Shown here: positions 9,330 to 61,555 of the stretch, in pieces | Layout of the letters: each line of letters starts with the position of its first letter | Position numbering within the stretch: the stretch's first letter is position 1 | DNA from: Malacoraja senta | Lineage: Eukaryota | Length of the DNA: 64,000 nt | Direction: 5' to 3' | NCBI GenBank assembly: GCA_038087875.1 | Contig: CM075989.1 | Span: 24,864,001 to 24,928,000 of the forward strand | The notes under the pieces: generated by a model | Told to the model about the DNA's origin: nothing | Seen by the model: the letters and a program-made list of their open reading frames with translations, nothing else | Databases searched by the model: none | Position numbers and translations under genes: made by a program

Positions 9330-9339
9330 GTGAGTGGGG

Positions 9340-10010
9340 GATACATGGGGAGAGGAAGGATGAGGGGGAGAGAGGGTATAGAGGGGGAGAGGGTACAGGG
9401 GGAGAGGGTACAGGGGGAGAGAGAGGGTACAGGTGGAGAGAGGGTACAGGGGGAGAGAGGATACAGGGGGAGAGGGTACAGGGAGAAGAAGGATGAGGGG
9501 GGAGAGAGGATTCAGGGGGAGAGGGTACAGGGGGAGAGAGAGGGTACAGGGAGAAGAAGGATGAGGGAGAGAGGATACAGGGGGAGAGGATACAGGTGGA
9601 GAGGGTACAGGGAGAGGAAGGATGAGGGAGGGGAGAGGATACAGGGAGAGAGGATTCAGGGGGAGAGAGGGTACAGGGGGAGGAAGGATGAGGGGGAAGA
9701 GAGGGTACAGGGGGAGAGGATACAGGGGGGGTACAGGGAGGGGAGAGAGGATACAGGAGGAGAGGATACAGGGGGAGGAAGGATGAGGGGGGAGGAAGGA
9801 TGAGGGGGGAGAGAGGATACAGGGAGAGGGGGAGAGATGATACAGGGAGAGGGGGAGAGAGGATACAGGTAGAGGATACAGGGAGAGAGGGAGAGAGGAT
9901 ACAGGGGGAGAGGGTACAGGGAGAGGATACAGGGGGAGAGGGTACAGGGAGAAAGGATACAGGGGGAGAGGGTACAGGGAGAGAGGATAGAGGGGGGAGA
10001 GAAGTTGGAT
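9340..10010 (+). repeat. Purine-rich minisatellite in STARD5 intron 1
   Basis: Degenerate GGGGGAGAG(A)GG(G/A)TACA units. Confidence 0.95.
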
Positions 10011-10534
10011 GAGGAAGGGTGGAGGGTCTTGTTTATTGAAATCCTGACAAATTGAATACAGTAGGTAAAGAAATACATCAAAATAAGAACTGGTTATTAT
10101 GTAATTTTTGTGATATCAGAGATTTGTATCTAAAATGTCCCTTTAACTTTATCTATCCCTGACCTCTGTCTTGGCATGTTATGTCTCTACTACTGATTGG
10201 GCAGTTGCTCCAGGTTGACTTGCTTCCACTCCAGTTTGGAATTGCTGCCAGGCATGCGATAGGAAGTGCTTGATGAGGTGTGTGGGTATTTAGGGAGAGG
10301 GTGTGTTGCCTTCACTGGGCCTCCGTATGTTGCCGATGAGGGAACCCGAGGTTATTGGTGCCATCCTGAAAGCTGCATCATGTTGAGCAATCATGAGCCA
10401 GGCATTCCAATGAAGGTCAGTCTGAAGAAGGGTCTTGACCCAAAACGTCACCCATTCCATCTCCCCAGAGATGCTGCCTGTCCCGCTGAGTTAAACCAGC
10501 ATCTGCAGTTCCTTCCTACACAATGAAGTTGATG

Positions 10535-11006
10535 TCCATTTTCACCAAGCACGATACCTGGAGGCTGCAGCGAATCGTCCGATCAGCAGAGAAGGTTATT
10601 GGCTGCAACCTTCCCTCCATTGATGAACTGTACACTGCAAGGGCCAGGAAGCGAGCGGGCAAGATCATCTCTGACCCCTGGCCACAAACTCTTTGAATCA
10701 TTTCCCTCTGGAAGGCGACTCCGGACTGTCAAAGCTGCCACAGCCAGACATAAAAACAGTTTTTATCCACGAGTAGTTGCTCTACTCAACAGCCAAAAAT
10801 CTGTAGCCTCCTTTTGATCTGGTATTTTGTTGGTTCACATGCTTGATCAATGATGTTTTATCATTAATGTTTTATTATTATTAATGTTTAGTGTTTTCTG
10901 AGTCATTCATAACTGTCACTGTATGTCATGTTGTTACTTGTGGGCAGAGCACGAAGGCAAATTCCTTGTATGTGAATACTTGGCCAATAAACTTACTTAC
11001 TTACTT
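10535..11006 (+). mobile_element. Rex1/Babar-like LINE 3' fragment
   Basis: Translates RLQRIVRSAEKVIGCNLPSIDELY...PGHKLFESFPSGRRLR...NSFYPRVVALLN; ends AATAAA(CTTA)n; related tail at ~7815-8000. Confidence 0.75.
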
Positions 11007-12871
11007 AAAACATCCTTGAATTGTTTCCTCTATCCGTTTGATTAATCTCGCCCTGTCATGGGGTTCCCATTCAGGAGTCTGGCATTAGGTGATCTGGTTG
11101 TTTGCATGCCATATTAGAGCCAGTGGAGAAGTAGAGATTCACTTGTCTTGGGACAGGATGTTTACCATGACTTATTCTGATGGTGGATGTTCCAGTACTG
11201 GTACATCCACCATCAGAATAAGTAATGGTAAACATCCTGTTCTGGATTGAGAGCTTGAAGAAGGGTCTCGACGTGAAACATCAGCCTGACCCACTGAGTT
11301 ACTCCAGCACTTTGCTTCCTTTTGTGTATTAACCAGCAAATGTAGTTGTTGGATTTCTACTATTGATACAATGATAAAACTGTACTGGCTTATAGTGGAC
11401 AATCGGCAATAACGGGCACCATTTCCCCCACCCGTCGTCCATTATAACGAGGGGTTACTGTACCATGTTCCTGGTGTGTTGCTCTTCTCAGATGATGAAG
11501 ATAAAGATGCAAACTCCTATCTGAGCTCTCTCCCCCTCTCCACTCTTTCCTCACCAACATCCATTAGCTTCCCAAGCCACAATGGATCTATCAAACATGA
11601 ATTAAACAGAAAATGTTGGATACACTCTGCATGTCAGAAACATCTGCAGAAACTCTTCATCTTGCCCAACAAGATGTTCCTCCTCGTTGTTTATCCTTCT
11701 GCAGCCTCTGGTGGCCCTATTGTAAACACTTTGCTTCAGGAAGACTGCAGTGAGACCCAGTTGAAAATGGTACGACAGAGCAGAAATGTTGATGTAGAAT
11801 GGAATACTTGTCATTGAAAGCCAGCGAACAGATGCAGCCGGCACTGAAAAGAAAGGGGTATGTTAGTCTTTATAACAAGACTATTTGAATAAACAGCGCT
11901 GCAATGTTATATTGAGCCTCAGTGAGATAGCTAAACTCTGTTCAGTTTTAATCTGCTTACCTAAAGAAGATTGTACTTGTTATCGAGGGGGGTGCAGCAA
12001 AGATTCACCAGACTGGTTTCTGAAACACATTGAGTTGGCTAGGCCTCTAGTGTCTTGAGTTTGGTTCAGTGAGAACTGACTAGATTGAAACATACAAGAT
12101 ATTTAGAAGATTCAATAGATTAAATTCCTGGAGTATGGAGGTAGAGCTCAGTTTCAGACTGCTTTGGACTAAAATAAGGGGAAATTTCTTCACCGGTAGA
12201 TTGCTGATTCTTTGTAGTCCTTTATCCCAGAGAACTCTGATAGATTCCTGGATAGTAAAGGAATTGAGTGACAGGAAAATGTTGTGGAAGATCAGCAGGT
12301 TAGAAGGACTGAGCGGTCCACTCCTGTTTTTTGTTCTCCACCATGCATTCATTAGTTTTTTTATGAGATCATGCATCCATTCGAAAGGAATAGTCTGAAG
12401 AAGGGTTTCGGCCCGAAACGTTGCCTATTTCCTTCGCTCCATAGATGCTGCTGCACCCGCTGAGTTTCTCCAGCATTTTTGTGTACCAGAAATACCAAAC
12501 CTCTTTCCATTAACTACATGATCCTAAGATACAGCAAACTACCCACAAACAACATGTTCAGAAAGTTGTTTAAATTGCATGCCCCAATCCACCACAAGAA
12601 CATCAACGAGCACTATTTGGCATATCAGCCATGATCATATTGAATGGCGGTGCAGGCTCGAAGGACCGAATGGCCTACTCCTGCACATATTTTACTATGT
12701 CTCTATGTTTCTATAAGGTCAGGAACTTATAGAAAGGGTAAAAGTTATCTTGATCAAAGGTTGAAGGACTTCCTAGAAAGTGGTTGGAAGTTGTGTGCAT
12801 TTTTCTTGGATCTTGTTTTGGAAAGAATTTTTGTGCTGATATGAGACTAAGGCAGAACAATATAACTTGTT

Positions 12872-14896
12872 AAAGAAGGAACTGCATATGCTGGAAAATC
12901 GAAGGTACACAAAAATGCTGGAGAAACTCAGCGGGTGCAGCAGCATCTATGGAGCGAAGGAAATAGGTAACGTTTCGGGCCGAAACCCTTCTTCAGACTG
13001 ATAGGGGGTGGGGAGAAGAAAGGAAAAAAGGAAAAGGAGGAGGAGGAGCCCGAGGGCTGGGGGAGGGGCGGAGACAACCAGATGGCTGATGAAGGGGAGG
13101 GGACAGCCAGGGCTAGCAGAATTGGGAGAATTCAACGTTCAGGCCACCAGGATGTAGACTGCCCAAGCGGAATATGAGGTGCATTTCCTCCAATTTACGG
13201 TGTTGCTCGCTGTGGCCATGGAGGAGACCCAGGACAGAGAGGTCAGATACGGAATGGGAGGGGGAGTTGAAGTGCTGAGCCACCGGGAGTTCAGGTTGGT
13301 TATTGCGGACCGACCGGAGGTGTTCGGCGAAACGATCGCCAAGCCTCCGCTTGGTCTCACCGATGTAGATCAGCTGGCATCTAGAGCAGCGAATGCAATA
13401 GATGAGGTTGGAGGAGATGCAGGTGAACCTCTGTCGCACCTGGAACGACTGCTTGGGTCCTGGAATAACTTTTCATTTGACTCCTCCCATTTCCTCCAAA
13501 TACAAGGCGTAGCTATGGGCACACGCATGGGCCCCAGCTACGCCTGCCTCTTTGTCGGGTACGTAGAACAATCCCTGTTCAATGCGTACCGGGGCCCCAT
13601 CCCCGACCTCTACCTCCGCTACATCGATGATTGTTTTGGTGCCACATCCTGCACCCACACACAACTGACTGACTTCATCCGCTTCACCACCAACTTCCAT
13701 CCGGCACTCAAATACACCTGGACCATTTCCGACACTTCCCTACCATTCCTTGACCTCACTATCTCCATCGCAGGTGATAGACTCCTTACCGACATCCACT
13801 ACAAACCTACCGACTCCCATGGCTATCTGGACTACACTTCTTCCCACCCTGCTTCCTGTAAGGACTCCATCCCCCACTCCCAATTCCTCCGTCTACGCCG
13901 CATCTGCTCCCAGGATGAGGCGTTCCACACCAGGGCATCTGAAATGTCCTCATTCTTCAGGGAACGGGGGTTCCCCTCCTCCACCATAGATGAGGCTCGC
14001 ACCAGGGTCTCTGCCATACCCCGCAACACTGCTCTCTCTCCCCATCCCCCCACTCACAACAAAGGCAGAGTCCCCCTAGTCCTCACCTTTCACCCCACCA
14101 GCCGTCACATACAACAAGTGATCCTCCGTCAGTTCCGCCACCTCCAATGTGACCCCACCACTCGCCACATCTTCCCATCTCCCCCTATGTCTGCCTTCCG
14201 CAAAGATCGCTCCCTCCGTAACTCCCTTGTCAATTCTTCCCTTCCCTCCCATACCACCCCCTCCCCTGGTACTTTCCCTTGCAACCGCAAGAGATGCAAC
14301 ACTTGTCCCTTCACTTCCCCCCTCCACTCCATTCCAGGACCCAAGCAGTCGTTCCAGGTGCGACAGAGGTTCACCTGCATCTCCTCCAACCTCATCTATT
14401 GCATTCGCTGCTCTAGATGCCAGCTGATCTACATCGGTGAGACCAAGCGGAGGCTTGGCGATCGTTTCGCCGAACACCTCCGGTCGGTCCGCAATAACCA
14501 ACCTGAACTCCCGGTGGCTCAGCACTTCAACTCCCCCTCCCATTCCGTATCTGACCTCTCTGTCCTGGGTCTCCTCCATGGCCACAGCGAGCAACACCGT
14601 AAATTGGAGGAAATGCACCTCATATTCCGCTTGGGCAGTCTACATCCTGGTGGCCTGAACGTTGAATTCTCCCAATTCTGCTAGCCCTGGCTGTCCCCTC
14701 CCCTTCATCAGCCATCTGGTTGTCTCCGCCCCTCCCCCAGCCCTCGGGCTCCTCCTCCTCCTTTTCCTTTTTTCCTTTCTTCTCCCCACCCCCTATCAGT
14801 CTGAAGAAGGGTTTCGGCCCGAAACGTTACCTATTTCCTTCGCTCCATAGATGCTGCTGCACCCGCTGAGTTTCTCCAGCATTTTTGTGTACCTTC
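12872..14896 (+). mobile_element. Penelope-like retroelement (Neptune-like), 5'-truncated with inverted terminal copy
   Basis: RT motifs QGVAMG and YLRYIDD, Cys linker CNRKRCNTC, GIY-YIG (LIY...YIGET...RFAEH). Arms 12901-13466 and 14331-14896 are inverted copies. TSD AGAACAATATAACTTGTT (12854-12871, 14897-14914). Confidence 0.93.
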
Positions 14897-15396
14897 AGAA
14901 CAATATAACTTGTTGGCTCCAAGGTCAACCAGACAGTTTATTGCTTTGGGCTAAGCTGGACCTTTTATGAAGACACATGGGCAACAACAGTTAGAAAATT
15001 TTAAATTAAATGATTAGATTTTCATTTACAATTCTCAGAATTTGTTTATATTCTCTGGCCATTCTATAGAAAATAAATGTGCAGAATCAACCTATGAAAG
15101 CCAATGTGTATCTCTGGAGGTTATGGCAGGATTATGTTCCTGCTTGTAACCCAAACAGATCACAAGTGGAAATATGAACTGTGTTCCCACCCAGCACAAG
15201 ATGGTTGCAGCCCCACACCAGTCGGTAAATCCACCGCGCCACTCTCAAAGGCTTGTCCATTTGTCCAGGGTGATCGTAAACTGGGGCAATTATCAAATCA
15301 AAAGATCGCTGTTGTCCAGTCTTCTTTCTACAGCAACTTTAAAAATCATTCCTACTATTGGGATAAGCTAGCCAATGGGAAAGAATATGTGTTCTG

Positions 15397-15640
15397 GTAC
15401 AGCAGTAGAGTTGCTGCCTTATAGCGCCAGAGTCCCAGGTTCAATCCTGACTACGGGTGCTCTCTGTATAGAGTTTGTACGTTCTCTCTGTGACTGCAAG
15501 GGTTTTCTCCAGGTTAATTAGCTTCTGTAAAATTAACCTAGCATGTAGGATCGAACTAGTGTACGGGTGATCATTGGTCGGTGCGGACTCAGTGGGCCGA
15601 TGGGCCTGTTTCTACCCATTTCTATAAACTAAAACTAAAC
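15397..15640 (+). mobile_element. tRNA-derived V-SINE (HE1-like)
   Basis: tRNA-like head with B-box GGTTCAATCC, central GGGTTTTCTCC domain, (TAAAC)n tail. Other copies near 7355-7595(-), 20205-20465(+), 35930-36200(+), 43200-43465(-), 60480-60770(-) and 61260-61440(-). Confidence 0.8.
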
Positions 15641-15848
15641 ACTCAATGTCATGGTGCAGTTTGTGTTGTGGGTTAAATCACTCTGATCATTCGAACTCTT
15701 CATCATTTTGAGCTTGGAGTAGCTTTTTATATCTTGTCATTCCAATGATGTTCATGTGTTCTGTTTAAAAAATAATGTTACTTTGCTACATAACTTTTGA
15801 TACTATCCATTCAAATTGTAATTATTGAAATGTGTTTCTCTTTGGTAG

Positions 15849-20473: not shown

Positions 20474-20667
20474 CGGGACCTGCAGCATCTCTGGATAGAA
20501 GGAATGGGTGATGTTTCGGGTCGAGACCCTTCTTCAGGCTCTGTAGTCTGAAGTCTGATGCAGTCTGAAGAAGGGTCTCGACCCGAAACGTCACCCATTC
20601 CTTCTATGCACTCCAGCATTTTGTGTCTATCTTCAGTGTAAACCAGCATCTGCAGTTCCTTCCTACA
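20474..20667. mobile_element. Short hairpin Penelope terminal-repeat insertion
   Basis: Inverted pair of terminal-repeat sequence; TSD CTAAACTGGTTTCAT (20459-20473, 20668-20682). Confidence 0.85.
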
Positions 20668-20862: not shown

Positions 20863-21075
20863 AAAGAAGGAACTGCAGATGCTGGAAAATCGAAGGTACA
20901 CAAAAATGCTGGAGAAACTCAGCGGGTGCAGCAGCATCTATCGAGCGAAGGAAATAGGCAACGTTTCGGGCCGAAACCCTTCTTCAGACTAGTGTTTTGG
21001 CCCGAAACGTTGCCTATTTCCTTCGCTCCATAGATGCTGCAGCACCCGCTGAGTTTCTCCAGCATTTTTGTGTAC
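20863..21075. mobile_element. Short hairpin Penelope terminal-repeat insertion, same subfamily as 12872-14896
   Basis: Same termini as the 2-kb element; TSD CTGTAGAGGCTTATTGTT (20845-20862, 21076-21093). Confidence 0.9.
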
Positions 21076-21252
21076 CTGTAGAGGCTTATTGTTGGATGTG
21101 TAGATGTTTGGATATTTCAAGGGACATGAGGTTAGTGTAAGAAGGTGAGGCTGAGGTCAAAGAGCAGCTATGACATTGAGTGACAGACCAAGCACAGGGA
21201 AGTAATTTTCTTTCTCGTGTTCTCATTATGTGTGCGTTTGTTTCATCACTAG

Positions 21253-29166: not shown

Positions 29167-29967
29167 CTGTTGTAAATAATAACACCAATACCTGGTTAGT
29201 AACTCTACCAGTTAACCACGTGAAGCAAAGATAGAGGCATGTATCACCCCCAGCGTATGACTCGAGAAGGTTAATGAGAATGATGGCTTGTTGGCAGGCA
29301 CACACATCTTCCTCTATCCATAAACATTCTACTTTTGAATATTCACCATTATGAATAACATTCCACTCAGGAATACGCTCTACCACCAGACTGTAATGCT
29401 TTTCACCCACAACCTTTGGTTCTACAAAATGCCACTTAAAAACATTTTCCAGTCATACACTTTCATTAATACAACATCTGTATTCTAGATTGCATAAATT
29501 CTTTGTGCAAAGAACTTGTATTTGAACCCATGGTTTGTGTATGAGGTGGACAGATATATTCCTGCCCGCATTAGTCATGCTTAATAGTGAAACCTCCTAG
29601 TCTCACCATGCCATTCATAGAGGCCTATTGTGTCGGAAGGAACTGCAGATGGTGGTTTAAACCAAAGATAAACACAAAATGCTGGAATAACTCAGCGGGA
29701 CAGGAGCATCTCTGCAGAGAAGGAATGGGTGACGTTTCAGGTCAAGACGAATCTGGTCTGAAGAAGGGTTTCGACCCAAAACATCACCCATTCCTTCTCT
29801 CCAGAGATGCTGCCTGCCCGCTGAGTTACTCCAGCATTTTGTGTTTATCACAGAGTCCCATTGCCTAAACAGCATGGTTAAAAACAAAATCAGTGGTATT
29901 ACTAATCCAGGGTGAGTTGTACATTCATGTTTGTTTGCAAAGGAACAGTTCATTAAATGGTCTCTAC

Positions 29968-30208
29968 CTGAAGTTGCAGAGTTCTCAGCTGAAGAGCATG
30001 CTGCTGCAGCACTGTGCTTGCTTTCACTTTCCTTGACCTTGTGCACCACCACTACCGCTTGCTCTGGCAGCCGTGCATGACGCAGGATGGCCAGAGCCTC
30101 CGAGTGAGTCGTGCCTTTCAATGACTGCCCATTGATTGACAAAATCTCATCCCCTTTCTCAATTGTTCCTTCCTGGGCGGCCAGTCCACTTGGAAACACC
30201 CTGTGAAC
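29968..30208 (-). CDS. IL16: IL16 exon
   Basis: [46 protein letters not shown]...linker. Confidence 0.95.
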
Positions 30209-30355
30209 CTGTTGTTGGAGGAAAGTAAAGGATGATTAATGTCTTGGTCTCTGCCTCCTTTGAATACTGGCTCCTGCTTCTCCTTATCATCTATTCCAGT
30301 GTACAAACTTTCCACAAACACACCAAGCTCGTGACTTTATCATTAGCGACTACTA

Positions 30356-31994
30356 CAGTGGCTTGCAAAAGTTTTCATACCCCTTGAACTTTTCCACATT
30401 TTGTCACGTTACAACCACAAACGTAAATGTATTTTATTGGGATTTTATGTGATAGACCAACACAAAGTGGTGCATAATTGTGAAGTGGAAGGAAAATGAT
30501 ACATGGTTTTCAAATTTTTTTACAAATAAAAAACTGAAAAGTGTCGCGTGCAAAAGTATTCAGCCCCCCCCCCCCCCCCCCCCCGCCCCGCCGAGTCAAT
30601 GCTTTGTAGAACCACCTTTCGCTGCAATTTCAGCTGCAAGTCTTTTGGGGTATGTCTCTACCAGCTTTGCACATGTAGAGACTGAAATTTTTGCCCATTC
30701 TTCTTTGCAAAATAGCTCAAGCTCAGTCAGATTGGATGGAGAGCGTCTGTGAACAGCAATTTTCAAGTCTTGCCAGAGATTCTCAATTGGATTTAGGTCT
30801 GGACTTTGACTGGGCCATTCTAACACATGAATATGCTTTGACCTAAACCATTCCATTGTAGCTCTGGCTGTATGTTTAGGGTCGTTGTTCTGCTGGAAGG
30901 TGAACCTCCGCCCCAGTCTCAAGTCTTTTGCAGACTCTAACAAGTTTTCTTCCAAGATTGCCCTGTATTTGGCTCCATCCATCTTCTCATCAACTCTGAC
31001 CAGCTTCCCTGTCCCTGCTGAAGAAAAGCATCCCCACAGCATGATGCTGCCACCACTATGTTTCACAGTGGGGATGGTGTGTTCAGGGTGATGTGCAGTG
31101 TTAGGTTTCCGCCACACATAGCGTTTTGCATTTAGGCCAAAAACTTCAATTTTGGTCTCATCTGACCAGAGCACCTTCCTCCACATGTTTGCTGTGTCCC
31201 CCACATGGCTTGTGGCAAACTGCAAACGGGACTTCTTATGGCTTTTTTTCAACAATGGCTTTCTTCTTGCCACTCTTCCATAAAGGCCCGATTTGTGGAG
31301 TGCACGACTAATAGTTGTCCTGTGGACAGATTCTCCCACCTGAGCTGTGGATCTCTGCAGCTCCTCCAGAGTTACCATGGGCATCTCGGCTGCTTCTCTG
31401 ATCAATGCTCTCCTTGCCCGGCCTGTCAGTTTAGGTGGACGGCCATGTCTTGGTAGGTTTGCAGTTGTGCCATACTCTTTCCATTTTCGGATGATGGATT
31501 GAACAGTGCTCCGTGAGATGTTCAAAGCTTGGGATATTTTTTTATAACCTAACCCTGCTTTAAACTTCTCCACAACTTTATCCCTGACCTGTCTGGTGTG
31601 TTCCTTGAGCTTCATGATGCTGTTTGTTCACTAATGTTCTCTAACAAACCTCTGAGGCCTTCACAGAACAGCTGTATTTATACTAAGATTAGATTACACA
31701 CAAGTGGACTCTATTTACTAATTAGGTGACTTCTGAAGGCAATTGGTTGCACTGGATTTTATTTAGGGGTATCAGAGTAAAGGGGGCTGAATACTTTTGC
31801 ACGTGACACTTTTCAGTTTTTTATTTGTAAAAAAATTTGAAAACCATGTATCATTTTCCTTCCACTTCACAATTATGCGCCACTTTGTGTTGGTCTATCA
31901 CATAAAATCCCAATAAAATACATTTACGTTTGTGGTTGTAACGTGACAAAATGTGGAAAAGTTCAAGGGGTATGAATACTTTTGCAAGCCACTG
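30356..31994 (-). mobile_element. Full-length Tc1/mariner (IR/DR, DD34E-type) transposon
   Basis: ~213-bp TIRs starting CAGTGGCTTGCAAAAG with about 3 mismatches, TA on both sides, internal repeat TGCAAAAGT(A/T)TTCA at both ends of each TIR. Confidence 0.96.
30596..31615 (-). CDS. Tc1 transposase, 339 aa, open frame
   Basis: Paired-like HTH, GRPPK, WSDETK, QQNNDPKH, SPDLNPIENLW. Confidence 0.93.
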   Translation of the reverse strand: MKLKEHTRQVRDKVVEKFKAGLGYKKISQALNISRSTVQSIIRKWKEYGTTANLPRHGRPPKLTGRARRALIREAAEMPMVTLEELQRSTAQVGESVHRTTISRALHKSGLYGRVARRKPLLKKSHKKSRLQFATSHVGDTANMWRKVLWSDETKIEVFGLNAKRYVWRKPNTAHHPEHTIPTVKHSGGSIMLWGCFSSAGTGKLVRVDEKMDGAKYRAILEENLLESAKDLRLGRRFTFQQNNDPKHTARATMEWFRSKHIHVLEWPSQSPDLNPIENLWQDLKIAVHRRSPSNLTELELFCKEEWAKISVSTCAKLVETYPKRLAAEIAAKGGSTKH

Positions 31995-32447
31995 TATATG
32001 ACCTTAACTGTTGATCCGAAAGGACCACATTCAACTTGAGTCTCCTGCTCAGTCATCTCAAAGTACCTGCAGAAAACCACCAACAATACCTGGTAGTAGG
32101 CCCCCCTCAGTCATGACTGACCATGGGTGATGCATCCTGGTCGGATGCAAGCCTGGCCGATGTCATATGGAGGACAGGCTGTTGCCCATGCAGCACGTCC
32201 CCCCTCTCCACGTTGCTGATCGATCCAAAGGAACAGCAGGGCCGTTACAGTTTGGCACCAGCACCGTCGCAGGAGCTGCCAGAGCGAGGTTGTAGACAAC
32301 GACGAACTGCCTTAGGGGCTCCGACTCCGGATTTTCTTGAGGTTTACTCCAGGAGACATTTCCATGACTGGATATGGCCATAAGGCAGTGGAGGTTTCAA
32401 ATCAGAGTTTTCCCTCTCATAGATGGACTTTCTTCCCAGGCTGACGA

Positions 32448-44896: not shown

Positions 44897-46046
44897 CTGT
44901 AATCACAACACCAGCCAAACGTTAGTGTTCACCTCCCAGTGCTAAACATCACACAGTGTACAGTTAAAGCTGCAGACTGCACAACAAAACCACCAGTCCT
45001 GGTGATCAGTGGAACAAATATATTGAATAAGGTACAATAACCAAAGTAGGGTGGGAGTCTGAGAAGCAAGGTGTTGTACAAGGCATTGGTGAGGCACATT
45101 TGGAGTAACATGTTCAGTTTTGGGCACCCTGTTCGAATGTAGAGAAGATTTACAAGGATATTACCAGGACTTGAGGACCTGAGCTGTTGGGAAAGGTTGG
45201 GAAAGATAGGAGTTGTTTCCTTGGAATGCAGGAGGCTGAGGGGTGAAGTATAAGACCATCAGGGGAATAGATGAAGTAGAGGCACCGAGTCTTTTACCCA
45301 GAGTAGAGACATTAAGAACCAGAGGGCATAGGTTTAGGTGAGAGGGGAAAGATTTAATAGCTATCTGAGAGGCAACTTTTTCGCACAGATGGTGGTGGAT
45401 GTATGGAACAAGCTGCCAGAGGAGGTAGTTGAGGCAGGTACTATAACAACAAGACATTTGGACAGGTACACGGACATGAAATATTTAGAGGGACATTGGC
45501 AAAGTGCTGGAGTAACTCAGCGGGTCAGGCAGCATCTGTGGAGAACATGGATAGGTGACATTTCACAGAGTGCTGGAGTAACTCAGCGGGTCAGGCAGCA
45601 TCTGTGGAGAACATGGATAGGTGACATTTCACAGAGTGCTGGAGTAACTCAGCGGTCAGGCAGCATCTGTGGAGAACATGGATAGGTGACGCTTTGGGAT
45701 GGAGATCATGGGCTGGGTAGTGGGAGATAAAATGTCTGCAACAACATACTGCCTTAACTATGAGTTGAAATTTAGGACCACAGGAAGGCTGAGCTAAATG
45801 TCATGTTAAATAATTCTCCTACTATAAACTAAACTAGAATGTGGACTTTGAAATCCTGGGAATTAATTTGAGCCTAAATCACCAAATGGAAGTCCCTTGG
45901 AACTGTGTGGAACTGGTTAAGGGTTCAAAAGAACACCATTGACTTGAGTCTACGTTGCTCCCTTTCCCAGCGGGTTCACGACTGGTGAATTGGCTTCTAC
46001 TACATCCCTCTGTCACCCCGACACCACTGAGGTGTGGCCATCTTAC

Positions 46047-49818: not shown

Positions 49819-51363
49819 CTGCAACTGCAACTTTATTTATATAGCACATTTCATACACGAGGCAGACTCAAAGTGCTTCACATAAAAACATGTCATACAA
49901 TAAAATGAAATAATAAAATGAAATAAAATAGAAGAATTAAAATAAAATAAAAGCAAAGTTAAAAATGCATTATAGAAAAGTGCAAAAGTTAAAAGTGCAA
50001 TGTAGTTAAGATTTAGCTGAAAGCTAAAGTAAACATCAAAGTTTTCAGTCTTGTTTTAAAAGTGGTGAAAGTAGGGGCAAGTCTTAAATCTTCAGGAAGT
50101 TTATTCCAGCTATTTGTTGCATAGTAACTAAATCCTGCTTTCCCATGTTTTGTATTTACTCTGGGAATCACTAACAGATTGGTCTCAGAAGATCTTAGCA
50201 GTCTAGAAGGCTTATATAGTGGAAGCATGTCAGTGATATACTTTGGCCCTAAACCATGTAGTGATTTATAGGTGAGCAGCAGGATTTTGAAATCAATTCT
50301 CTGACATACAGGGAGCCAATGTAAGGATTTAAGAATTGGTGTAATGTGTTCAAATTTTTTGGTCTTTGTTAGAACTCTAGCAACAGCGTTCTGAACAAGC
50401 TGTAGCTGCCTGACAGTTTTTTTTCGGAAGACCTGCAAGGAGACCGTTACAATAATCTAGCCTACTAGTAATAAAGGCATGTACAAGTTTTTCTAAGTCT
50501 TGAGCTGACACGAGTCCTCTTAGTCTTGCTACGTTTTTGAGATGATAGTAGGCCGATTTTGTTACTGATTTGATGTGACTGTCGAAATGTAAATCTGAAT
50601 CCATAATAACCCCGAGATTTCTGGCTTTGTTTGAAGTTTTCAGGGACAGAGAGTGAAGGTGTTGGGTTACTTTAAGCCTTTCTTTTTTAGCACCAAAAAC
50701 AATTATCTCCGTTTTGTCCTTATTTAGTTGGAGGAAATTTTGGCACATCCAGTCTTTGACTTGCTCAATGCACTGGCACAGCAGATCTATGGGGCGATAG
50801 TCATTTGGTGATAGCGCTACATAGATTTGAGTGTCATCGGCATAGCAGTGGTGGTCAATATTATTATTTCGCATGGTTTGCCCTAGTGGGAGCATGTAGT
50901 TGAATAAAGAGGGCCCTAAGATCGAACCTTGCGGGACTCCACACAAGGTTGGTTCTGATACAAAGTCGCCAATGGAAACAAAATAGTTCCTATCTTGTAG
51001 ATATGACCTGAACCAACTTAAGACTGTGCCTGAAAGCCCCACCCATTTTTCCAACCTGTCCAAAAGTATTGAGTGATCAACAGTGTCGAATGCAGCACTG
51101 AGGTCTAATAGCATTAATATTGATACTTTGCCAGAGTCTGTGTTAAGACGGATGTCGTTTACAACTTTAATAAGGGCGGTCTCAGTGCTATGAAGAGGTC
51201 GAAATCCTGACTGGAAGTTATCGTAGCAGCTAGTTGAAGCCAGGAAGTGATTAAGTTGCTGGAGGACAACTTTCTCAATGATTTTACTTATGAAAGGTAG
51301 GTTTGATATTGGTCTATAGTTGTTAATAATAGAGGCATCTAGGCTCTGCTTTTTTAAAGGTTT
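49819..51363 (-). mobile_element. L2-clade LINE 3' fragment inserted in a V-SINE (49646-51469)
   Basis: NYRPISNLPF, LLDLSAAFDTVDH, GVPQGSILGP, YADD, LHWLPV; frameshifted. TTTGTA duplicated at 49813-49818 and 51365-51370. Confidence 0.92.
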
Positions 51364-52673
51364 TTTTGTAGGTTAATTGGATTCTGTAAATTGTCCCTAG
51401 TGTATAGAATGGTGCTAGGACTCGATGGGCAGAATGGCCTCTTTCCGTGCTGTATCTCCAAACTAAACTTTCAGCACAAGAACCTTGAATGGAAGAAACT
51501 GTTCCAAGGTGATGCAACAGAACGTAATCAGAAATATTGTTGATAGGAGCAGACTTAGGCCATTCAGCCTATCAAGTCTACTCCACCATTCACTCATGGC
51601 TGATCTATCTTCCCCTCTTAACCCTATTCTCCAGCCTTCTCCCCATAACCCCTGACACCCATACTAATCAAGAATCTATCTATCTCTGCCTTAAAAATAT
51701 CCATTGACTTGGCCTCCTCCACAGCCGTCTGTGGCAATCATAACAATGGGCTCAGCACTGTTGGCAGCTTGTCAATCTGACTACCATTGGCATGGTTTAC
51801 CTAGTACCGAGCTTTGAGGTATCATTAGGTCACAGAGACCGTATCCCACCCTCAACCACACTCACACCCCCAACTTTGATGTGTTGTGGATCAAAAGGGC
51901 TAAAAATCAGCTCCCCGGTAAAACTCCCAGGTAGGCAAAAATGCTGGAGAAACTCAGCAGGTGATGCAGCATCTATGGAGCGAAGGAATAGGTGAAGTTT
52001 TGTGTCGAGGCCCTTCTTCAGACTGGGTAAAACTCTCAGGTAAGCTAGATTAGGGAGAATATTTAGGGAAGTATTCTAATGGATTCAAAGGGCTGAATGG
52101 CCTACTCCTGCACCTATTGTCTATTGAATAAGGGGAGGTGCGACAGACACAGACTTGGGGAGGGACTTGTGGAGCTTAAAGCCTAGGTGGTGAGAGGCAG
52201 GCTGCCATTGGTTGCAGTAGATATATGGCACAACAAGTGGTCAGCATTTCCTTCTCTCTGGACACTTGCCCAGCTTCCTCTTTAAGCATCAACGTTACTA
52301 ACTTCCACTACCCCCTCCACCAGCAAGTTCCACATTCTCACCGCTGCCTGGGTAATTCTGTCTTGAATTTCTCGGTAACCAGTTTATATAAATGCCCCTA
52401 CTGACCTTACTCGCCTGAAGTGGAAATGTTATCACTCTATACAAGGTCACAAAGTGCTGGAGTAACTCAGTGGGTCAGGCAGCATTTGTGGAGAATCATG
52501 GATAGGTGATGTTTGCAGAGTCCTGACCCAAAACTTCACCCGTTCCGTCTCTCCAGAGATGCCGGCCGACCATTGATGAGGGACAATGTGCTGAAAGCCT
52601 TGTACCACCCTATCTACATTTCATTGTAAAGGAGAGGTGAGTGAACACGGGGAACAAAGCCAAGTCTACTCAC

Positions 52674-52788
52674 CTTCCCTCAGCCGCCCATCAGCAGCAG
52701 CAGCTCCATCTGCGTAAATGGTCCTTACGAAAATCCCCATGGGTCCATAGACACTGTCTCTTCCTCCCACCACACTGAAGCCCAGGCC
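52674..52788 (-). CDS. IL16: IL16 exon (first N-terminal PDZ)
   Basis: [38 protein letters not shown]. Confidence 0.95.
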
Positions 52789-52842
52789 CTGTGAGAAGAA
52801 GATGCACAATTATCAGCCCAATAACTATTTCACAAGGAGAGA

Positions 52843-53165
52843 CACAAAGTGCTGGAGTAACTCAGCGGGTCAGGCAGCATCTGTGGAGAACATGGATAGG
52901 TGACGTTTCACAGAGTGCTGGAGTAACTCAGCGGGTCAGGCAGCATCTGTGGAACGAAGGAAATGGGCAACCTTTCGGGCCGAAACCCTGAAGGAAATAG
53001 TCAACGTTTCGGGCCGAAACGTTGCCTATTTCCTTCGCTCCATAGATGCTGCCTGAACATGGATAGGTGACGTTTTACAGAGTGCTGGAGTAACTCAGTG
53101 GGTCAGGCAGCGTCTCTGGAGAACATGGATAGGTGACGTTTCAGGTCGGGACCCTTCTTCAGACT
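52843..53165. repeat. Composite array of 66-bp Penelope-derived units
   Basis: Same unit and same internal insert as 59591-60250. Confidence 0.85.
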
Positions 53166-58987: not shown

Positions 58988-59590
58988 CTGCCAAAAATAT
59001 AAGTTGCAATTCATTAGAAAACAGAGAATGATCTAATATTAGGAACAGGTGGGACCCACAGATCCAAGAGGGAGGAGAGCTGGAGTTATGGGGCACTGCG
59101 TCAAGCAGTACCTTCCCCACAAACAAGTCAAAGATTCTCTGCATCATCGTCTGTATCTCCCGTATCTCTCAGTCTGAAGAAGGGTCTCGACCCAAAATGT
59201 CACCCATTAATTCTCTCCAGTGATGCTGCCTGTCCCTCGGAGTTGCTCCAGCATTTTGTGTCTATCTTTGGTTTAAACCAGCATCCGCAGTTCCTTCCTA
59301 CACGATTTAAAGATTCTGTTCACTTCTAGCAGTCCTGGATGAACCTCGAGCCATATAACGTCTACACGTCCCGGTGGAAAGTAGAAACAATGTGGATGTC
59401 CACTGGGACTCAGCGGTGTAAAATAGGAAATGGCAAGGTAGAAGCAGTCTGCTTTACATCACTGTCATTGCCACTTCCATGCCTCAGGCCAGCACTTCAT
59501 AAGTAACTAAGCCGGCCTCAAATGGAGTTGTGGGCACTTCTGGAAAAACTCAATGGCCTCTAGAAAGTGCACGGAGGAACTTTATTCGGA

Positions 59591-60250
59591 CACAGAGTGC
59601 TGGAGTAACTCAGCGGGTCAGGCAGCATCTGTGGAGAACATGGATAGGTGACGTTTCACAGAGTGCTGGAGTAACTCAGCGGGTCAGGCAGCATCTGTGG
59701 AGCGAAGGAAATGGGCAACCTTTCGGGCCGAAACCCTGAAGGAAATAGGCAACGTTTCGGGCCTAAACCCGGAAGGGTTTCGGGCCGAAACGTTGCCTAT
59801 TTCCTTCGCTCCATAGATGCTGCCGGAACATGGATAGGTGACGTTTCACAGAGTGCTGGAGTAACTCAGCGGGTCAGGCAGCATCTGTGGAGAACATGGA
59901 TAGGTGACGTTTCCCAGAATGCTGGAGTAACTCAGTGGGTCAGGCAGCATCTGTGGAGAACATGGATAGGTGACGTTTCACAGAGTGCTGGAGTAACTCA
60001 GCGGGTCAGGCAGCATCTGTGGAGAACATGGATAGGTGACGTTTCACAGAGTGCTGGAGTAACTCAGCAGGTCAGGCAGCATCTGTGGAGAACATGGATA
60101 GGTGACGTTTCACAGAGGGCTGGAGTAACTCAGCGGGTCAGGCAGCATCTGTGGAGAACATGGATAGGTGACGTTTCACAGAGTGCTGGAGTAACTCAGT
60201 GGGTCAGGCAGCATCTGTGGAGAACATGGATAGGTGACGTTTCAGGTCAG
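59591..60250. repeat. Tandem array of 66-bp Penelope-derived units
   Basis: Unit starts at 59591, 59657, 59847, 59913, 59979, 60045, 60111 and 60177. Confidence 0.92.
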
Positions 60251-61555
60251 GACCCTCCTTCGCACACTATTAGGATATTGGAGACACAAGATACTGTACT
60301 CTAGAGCAAAAAAAATCAAAGTGCTGGAGGGACTCAGCAGGTCAGGCAGCATCGGTGGATACAGAGGGAAGGTCCACATTTCAGGGTCGAGATTCTGCAA
60401 CAGGTCAATTTGTTTTAAGTAATGTGCTTTTTGCACTTTATTAGGCTGTTACCTTGGATGAATGATTTCAGTTCTAAACGTTTAGTTTAGAGATACAGCA
60501 CGGAACTAGGCCCACCGAGTCCACGCCGACCAGCGATCCCCGCACACTAATACTATCTTACACACACTAGGAATGATTTACACTTATACCAAGCCAATTA
60601 ACCTACAAACCTGCACGTCTTTAGAGTATAGGAGGAAACCGGAGCACCCGGAGAAAACCCACGCAGTCACAGAGAGAACGTACAAACTCCGTATAGACAG
60701 CACATGTAGTCAGGATGGAACCCGGGTCCCTGGCGCTGTGAGGCAGCAACTCTACCGTTGCGCCACCGTGCTGGAAAGGTCAATCAATTGGTGGTCAGCT
60801 AAGCTTGTTGTCTCGGTGAGAGAGAGTTCAGATAAATGTTATCTGAACATTCATAACATTTAATTTTTCGTGCCGCTGAATAGGATGGATAAATATTTTT
60901 CAGATCAGTCAGAGCTTTAGGCGAGGAAGCTGGAGAATAATGATTCCCTTTGACAACCTGTTGGCCATCTGGAGATTGTAAACATAAAATCATTAGCGCA
61001 AATCTAGAGGCCGATGAGAAGACTTTCTCACGCAGTGTTTGATGATGTGTGAGGTTTTACAAAAGGATCTGGAGTTTACAGGATTATGGACATCAAATTG
61101 ATATATTTAGGACTAAATACAAGAGCCAGCACGTAAAAAGGACCGAATGGTCTCTTTAATAGCAAGTTCCTGTGAATCTAAAATTCTATAGCTTCAATGA
61201 CTATAAAAATCAGGAGTGGTGCAAATGGCTGTTGGCTTCTTGTGGTGGCTTTTACATAGGACAATACAGCGCGGAAACTGGCCCTTTGGCCCACCAGTCC
61301 GCGCCGACCAGCGATCCCCGTACACTAACAGTATCCTAAACTAGGGACAATTTACATTTATACCAAGCCAATTAACCTGCAAACCTGTACGTCTTTGGAG
61401 TGTGGGAGGAAACCGAGGATCTCGGAGAAAACCCACGAGTCATAAGCTTAGCTGGTGACCAATTGATTGAAACAATTTACTAAGTGTTATCTCCATTCTG
61501 AGGGGTCGAGATGCCTCCCAGACACGTCATTCCTTCACTGCTGCCGGTTATTTAC

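Follow-up and report, generated by a model that had tools for sequence, protein, structure and literature searches.

Both the class of minimal hammerhead motifs carried by Penelope-like elements (PLEs) and the hypothesis that such motifs act as dimers are already in print. In PMC4209133, monomers of minimal PLE hammerheads did not cleave, and dimers or trimers cleaved weakly. The motif of an anole element did not cleave without the element protein, its mutation left insertion unaffected, and no RNA-seq reads ended at its cut site (PMC11167929). The role of PLE hammerheads has been described as still open (PMC8557442). The skate motif analysed here is one further family in the class described in 2014. 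We are highly confident that this motif is a minimal type I hammerhead belonging to a Neptune-type Penelope-like retrotransposon, and that its copies in the introns of the gene STARD5 are element debris that probably does not cut the host RNA. A literature search with partial coverage returned nothing on this skate element family or on copies that start at the edge of the core.

The window (the whole 64-kb stretch of DNA that was analysed) carries six motifs, and a sequence pattern check recovered every one of them with the coordinates, strands and stem II variants given in a first-pass annotation of the same DNA. Their positions, and that of the intron that contains three of them, are as follows:

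9330-15848, plus strand: STARD5 intron 1, delimited by splice signals
12395-12422, plus strand: hammerhead motif in STARD5 intron 1, in a short separate insertion
12969-12996, minus strand: hammerhead motif in the inverted arm of a large insertion, antisense to STARD5
14801-14828, plus strand: hammerhead motif, sense to STARD5 and predicted to be paired with 12969-12996
20565-20592, plus strand: hammerhead motif of a sister subfamily, in an arm of a fold-back insertion in STARD5 intron 5
20960-20987, minus strand: hammerhead motif inside STARD5 intron 5, carried by a fold-back insertion that spans about 20863-21076 and has a target-site duplication
53135-53162, minus strand: hammerhead motif of a third subfamily

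When a strict minimal-hammerhead descriptor (core, 4-bp stem II, palindromic 15.2-16.2 and UH) was run on the window, exactly these six motifs were returned, and Rfam at gathering thresholds matched nothing in the same 64 kb. Degenerate copies are also present at 10422 (G12 to A) and at 20510-20537 (G16.2 to A). The copy at 12969-12996 is an inverted duplicate of that at 14801-14828, and both lie inside one insertion. The copies at 12395 and 14801 had been called identical, which is correct for the 28 nt of the motif but not for its surroundings: the first base past the predicted cut differs, 12392-12486 and 14798-14892 differ at one of 95 nt, and the sequences upstream are entirely different.

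Judged by the features set out in PMC4209133, the proposal that these are minimal type I hammerheads carried in a Penelope-like element's terminal repeat is supported. The conserved core (CUGANGA, GAAA and UH) is present, stem II has 4 bp with a G10.1-C11.1 pair and is preceded by one additional base, which follows A9 and thus lies between positions 9 and 10.1, and stem III has shrunk to the palindrome ACGT in all six window copies, just as the annotation had it. This palindrome at 15.2-16.2 allows a stem III to form in a dimer, with a predicted duplex energy of -4.1 kcal/mol. The core, the extra base before stem II and the G10.1-C11.1 pair are shared with the published minimal PLE motifs, among them those of the fish elements Xena, Poseidon and Neptune, as are the lack of a loop III, the palindromic 15.2-16.2, the terminal-repeat position and the occurrence mostly as single or opposite-strand copies (PMC4209133). 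The stems differ in length, with 4 bp in stem II and, fewer than in most such motifs, 2 bp in stem I here versus 7-8 and 4-5 bp in S. mansoni, while D. virilis likewise has 2 bp in helix I (PMC4209133).

The shortness of stem I, which had been estimated at about 2 bp, is borne out: a U-A or U-G pair is followed by G-C, and beyond that lies an A.C mismatch. We number positions from core C3 as +1, such that copies made from cut RNA would start at +29. Of 299 anchors sampled, 27 belong to copies that are free of gaps and have kept the 5′ core intact; in these, pairing is seen in 22 at -1/+29, in 25 at -2/+30 when G-U and U-A are counted, and in 3 at -3/+31, and a 2-bp stem I is found in every subfamily seen. 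The further claim that stem II pairing is kept across variants is right in that 95% of cells are paired, but this has come about through one-sided changes only. In a covariation set of 11 window copies (10 distinct rows, and thus of low power), none of the six pairs is changed on both sides, and 219 of 500 shuffles pair as well as the real copies do. Because no pair changes on both sides, the structure is supported by its match to a known class rather than by covariation. The common variants of all three subfamilies share the same 15 conserved core bases, with loop II and H17 being variable, and this constancy suggests that the motif does something for the master elements.

Folds were also predicted for individual copies. 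At 12395, stem II has a probability of about 0.6 and the two stem I pairs reach 0.05 and 0.03; an arm that happens to lie upstream makes the region around stem I longer. The copies at 20565 and 20960 are predicted to lie inside fold-backs, with a stem II probability of 0.0. For long copies, the prediction has the core paired with the pyrimidine tract upstream of it. A search of a 970-kb genome sample (described below) for other hammerhead families, using a relaxed descriptor, returned solely variants of this one.

The element that carries the motif can be read from the large insertion in intron 1 and from the smaller one upstream of it:

12853-12871, no strand: left target-site duplication of 19 bp, with the same 19-mer at 14896
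12872-13466, minus strand: inverted 5′-truncated arm with endonuclease end, terminal repeat, hammerhead and long tail
12872-12900, minus strand: long tail of the inverted arm
13467-14684, plus strand: 5′-truncated ORF (open frame) with the C-terminal part of the reverse transcriptase (RT), a CX4CxxC linker and a GIY-YIG endonuclease
14685-14800, plus strand: non-coding, pyrimidine-rich terminal repeat ending CAG-T right before the core
14829-14895, plus strand: short tail past the predicted cut, stopping at the nearer of two common 3′ ends
14896-14914, no strand: right target-site duplication of 19 bp, matching the copy at 12853
12392-12486, plus strand: separate short insertion (stub) made of the motif 12395-12422 and a short tail, starting 3 nt before the core

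Thus, 12872-14895 is a single insertion between 19-bp target-site duplications, its two arms ending in tails of different length, one long and one short, and 12901-13466 is complementary to 14331-14896 at 100%, which constitutes a 566-bp perfect inverted repeat. The stub is preceded by about 12 nt that resemble an inverted piece of its own tail. A full-length version of the element was found in a locus (L218) among eight stretches chosen where motifs cluster. This is a partial tandem in which each end carries the motif. The two motifs are 3,918 nt apart, one per unit, and the motif follows the stop of one ORF and precedes the beginning of the next. The ORF of 1,212 amino acids matches RVT_1 (E 0.00059) and GIY-YIG (E 0.0013), both below the Pfam curated cut-offs, and the GIY-YIG match of the ORF in the window (E 0.00039) has 21.1 bits, under the cut-off of 22.6. 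The element piece in the window is 99% identical to L218.

A single ORF with RT plus a C-terminal GIY-YIG, a partial-tandem pseudo-LTR, an inverted truncated copy and an optional tail are all features of PLEs that encode an endonuclease (EN+), and the linker CNRKRCNTC between RT and endonuclease fits the CX2-5CxxC pattern. As described in PMC8557442, this linker marks Neptune and Nematis. We therefore call the carrier Neptune-type from the linker motif, a putative assignment given that Nematis shares it. The Neptune-type EN+ PLEs of that paper are alike in their RT with C-terminal GIY-YIG and CX2-5CxxC linker, and also in the partial tandem, the adjacent inverted truncated copy and the optional tail of 30-40 bp; in contrast to them, the insertion here has no microsatellite target (PMC8557442).

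Short non-coding units derived from PLEs and carrying a type I hammerhead are also known as non-LTR retrozymes, which can likewise reach very high copy numbers, such as the 126,247 motifs of axolotl (PMC7229834; bioRxiv 10.64898/2026.07.22.740005). One chondrichthyan genome is included in the retrozyme survey (bioRxiv 10.64898/2026.07.22.740005). However, retrozymes are tandem repeats with a whole ribozyme in each unit, whereas in the skate the stubs lie scattered, as single or fold-back copies that have target-site duplications (PMC7229834; bioRxiv 10.64898/2026.07.22.740005). Tandem units with a complete hammerhead each are not the rule in this family, as only 5 of 299 sampled copies are tandem.

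Pattern searches of the 1.94-Gb genome found 19,101 copies of the exact 28-mer and none of its reversed control, such that the 28-mer is not a chance occurrence but a very common repeat. A sample of 97 stretches of 10 kb each (970 kb, taken at round positions on contigs C1-C16, with two stretches adjoining the window) holds 49 intact motifs, compared with none in the reversed sequence, and 299 tail anchors, compared with none in 40 of these stretches that were reversed as a control. By extrapolation, the genome would contain about 98,000 intact motifs (73,000-130,000) and about 600,000 tail anchors or stubs. The former estimate can be set against about 4,000 copies in coelacanth and about 9,000 in Xenopus (PMC4209133). 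Given roughly one intact motif per 20 kb, the presence of two sense copies in a 6.5-kb intron is unremarkable.

Tens of thousands of young insertions provide a test bed for the role of PLE hammerheads. If cut RNA had served as the template, copies should start at +29, and they do not. Genome-wide, 42,576 of 46,993 tail matches run 2 nt past the predicted cut, the shortfall including mutation and subfamily variants. The cut is spanned in all 30 loci selected by their tails, among which two pairs each represent the arms of a single insertion; an automatic call at +28 turned out by eye to be an indel artefact. Starts at +29 account for 1 of 133 copies bounded by flanking sequence and for 1 of 126 copies with an inverted partner. 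We infer that the genomic copies were probably made from uncut RNA, and their ends agree with the uncut template found in vitro. The anole Poseidon element PAc is alike in this respect, with uncut RNA as template and no ends at the cut, and also in its two 3′ ends about 30 nt apart and the priming of both strands; it belongs to another clade, and its ORF starts in stem II, whereas the first Met of L218 lies 164 nt downstream of the core start (PMC11167929). In the skate, the two common 3′ ends are likewise about 30 nt apart, in agreement with the two RT start sites of the anole element, with 22 short and 8 long ends among 30 copies, a few of the ‘short’ ones being early stops at indels.

Copy ends accumulate right in front of the core. 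Starts at -5 to +1 are seen in 82 of the 133 flank-bounded copies (47 without the -5 class, which is where the reference reaches its limit), with a peak at -2, and by eye 15 of the 30 tail-selected copies begin at -5 to +2. Extension of the 28-mer in the 5′ direction reduces the genome-wide matches from 19,101 to 16,371 at -2, 13,305 at -3, 11,325 at -4 and 6,736 at -11, although the last drop also includes the loss of sister subfamilies (7 of 30 loci). Target duplications of 8-15 nt often adjoin the starts near the core, and loose ends fall at 14798-14799 in contigs of related organisms. The simplest cause of starts 1-5 nt before the core would be an RNA 5′ end at the initiator-like TCAGT, likely a transcription start. 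The sequence TCAGT resembles the initiator consensus. An internal promoter of initiator type has been described for the Penelope element of D. virilis (PMC2377424). As for the extra-G signature of a cap, G precedes AGT in 810 cases versus 1,170 for A or T. Flank composition alone would predict 322, so that the 810 exceed expectation about 2.5-fold, but in 30 loci with this G it is frequently supplied by the target duplication or by a piece that was inverted or duplicated.

We also considered a splice acceptor at the core edge, given that the PLE intron of D. virilis ends at helix I. This reading found no support: none of the joints listed is a GT..AG joint into 14800, and 60 loci have no common upstream exon. 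The sequence before the core cannot be aligned between subfamilies, yet it is pyrimidine-rich in all 23 long reference copies, which come from several subfamilies, and its final CAG resembles a 3′ splice site; L218 has a donor-like AAG/GTATGC 163 nt downstream. Separately, a cut located 5′ of the core (NUH at -6 to -4, in a type III layout) was rejected from the sequence, since stem I would not fit there and the pair 15.2-16.2 would lack its G.

From these ends, a route of propagation can be proposed. By analogy with the anole element (PMC11167929), the element protein would nick both DNA strands and RT would start about 65 or about 95 nt past the predicted cut, and two nicked strands with two RT start sites would explain the two tails and the inverted arms. 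The template would be uncut RNA: transcripts that start 1-5 nt before the core, probably at the promoter start, would yield stubs of about 95-130 nt such as 12392-12486, and read-through RNA would yield the longer copies. Any ribozyme activity would then reside in tandem RNA of the element itself, in complex with the element protein. More tentatively, and at odds we would put well short of even, transcription would begin right where the hammerhead begins, and the stub of about 100 nt would unite a start site, an uncut ribozyme and an RT loading site, maybe as a self-propagating mini-element. The approximately 600,000 stubs and 98,000 motifs would then be a record of a hammerhead that stayed uncut during insertion in vivo, with a stem I arm of at most 2-3 nt.

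It is appropriate to question whether the motif of this element family works as a self-cleaving hammerhead at all. The argument that it does not draws on the 2-bp stem I in each subfamily seen and on the derivation of copies from uncut RNA. In predicted folds, moreover, an alternative hairpin and a dimer of GUUUCGGCCCGAAAC are more stable than the hammerhead, and conservation between subfamilies runs from CAGT through the tail, beyond the core. Other functions are left open by PMC4209133 itself. However, every catalytic base and the stem III palindrome have been kept, the D. virilis motif makes do with an equally short helix I, and the anole motif cleaves when its protein helps. On balance, we regard a motif without self-cleaving activity as possible though rather doubtful.

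The host gene STARD5 lies on the plus strand: two exons have human STARD5 as their best PDB match (E 8e-13 and 4e-12), and GT..AG joints between exons 2 and 3 and between exons 3 and 4 occur in two of four sequencing runs (X3 and X7), the contigs being from relatives or unverified organisms. The copies at 12395 and 14801 are indeed both sense and both within intron 1, as defined by splice signals. From this arrangement it had been suggested that the two could pair in cis and cut the nascent STARD5 RNA. If true, some 10^5 intronic motifs would represent a hidden layer of pre-mRNA cutting. Both copies are intact, the topology of such a dimer can be drawn without a pseudoknot, and an intronic ribozyme able to affect its host mRNA is known in CPEB3 (PMC10274809).

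Predicted folding does not support the suggestion. When 12340-14930 is folded to minimum energy, 14331-14896 pairs over its entire 566 nt with 12901-13466, and a double hammerhead of 12395 and 14801 is 91.5 kcal/mol worse. The 14801 motif sits inside this perfect hairpin, whose other arm (12901-13466) is transcribed earlier, which leaves the cis-dimer without support. Free of the long hairpin, double hammerheads come out at +26.3 kcal/mol (10422 with 12395) and +23.5 kcal/mol (a model tandem of two stubs), and thus the excess of about 65 kcal/mol for the 12395/14801 dimer is due to the perfect duplex. These energies are uncalibrated, with no positive control, and omit Mg2+, tertiary contacts, proteins and the action of ADAR or helicases. 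In the STARD5 pre-mRNA, then, 14801 is predicted to be double-stranded and 12395 would be left without a partner.

Furthermore, stems I of 2 bp and the weak or protein-dependent activity of relatives speak against a cis-dimer, and so does timing. Exon 2 starts 1,021 nt past 14828, which at a mammalian elongation rate of 3.5-4.1 kb/min (PMC10274809) leaves about 15-18 s; for comparison, the CPEB3 ribozyme has a half-life of 2-3 min and 9.9 kb (PMC10274809). A CPEB3-like ability to fold and cleave in nascent host RNA is predicted to be lacking. Finally, STARD5 holds copies in both orientations, with four sense and two antisense tail anchors. We consider it extremely improbable that 12395 and 14801 form a double hammerhead that cuts the STARD5 pre-mRNA.

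Slow and occasional cutting also strikes us as very unlikely, whether 12395 acts with the degenerate upstream copy at 10422 while the antisense arm has yet to be transcribed, or in trans with RNA and protein of the element. The copy at 12395 is not locked in the hairpin, has the appreciable stem II probability and chance upstream arm noted above, and could use the ACGTC that 10422 retains, all under energies that ignore Mg2+ and proteins. However, the G12 to A change in 10422 leaves only one intact core, the dimer lies 26.3 kcal/mol above the best fold (by the same uncalibrated energies), and the stem I pairs at 12395 are hardly formed in the prediction. Overall, the evidence at this locus points against pre-mRNA cutting.

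The 566-bp perfect duplex within intron 1 (12901-13466 with 14331-14896) is itself a likely substrate for ADAR or dsRNA sensors. It would shorten the effective length of the intron, and this is a more plausible effect on the host than cleavage.

Several other features of the window and genome were recorded. Tandem arrays of the element tail with a 66-nt unit occur on the minus strand at 45411-45740, 52756-53019 and 59504-60287; their units restart at GAAACGTC and are without the 5′ half of the hammerhead core (CUGANGA). In sequencing runs X1 and X2, single contigs from related organisms show head-to-tail joints over 14794-14890 that go back 92 nt, which may represent tandem stubs with a whole motif per unit, a retrozyme-like arrangement. 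On contig C1, the region 3870000-4036000 (part of which is locus L224) is a long array whose units measure 2-2.5 kb, each with tail copies that point in both directions.

A young Tc1/mariner element at 30354-31996 has terminal inverted repeats of 215 nt that are 99% complementary, and an open frame of 343 amino acids with Sleeping Beauty-type HTH and DDE matches. An exon at 29660-30235 on the minus strand encodes a PDZ domain, and we take it to be probably IL16, the neighbour of STARD5 by synteny. Should the motif at 53135-53162 lie inside the gene of this exon, it would be sense to that gene. A LINE-type reverse transcriptase fragment (RVT_1, E 6e-33) is present at 50380-51372 on the minus strand.
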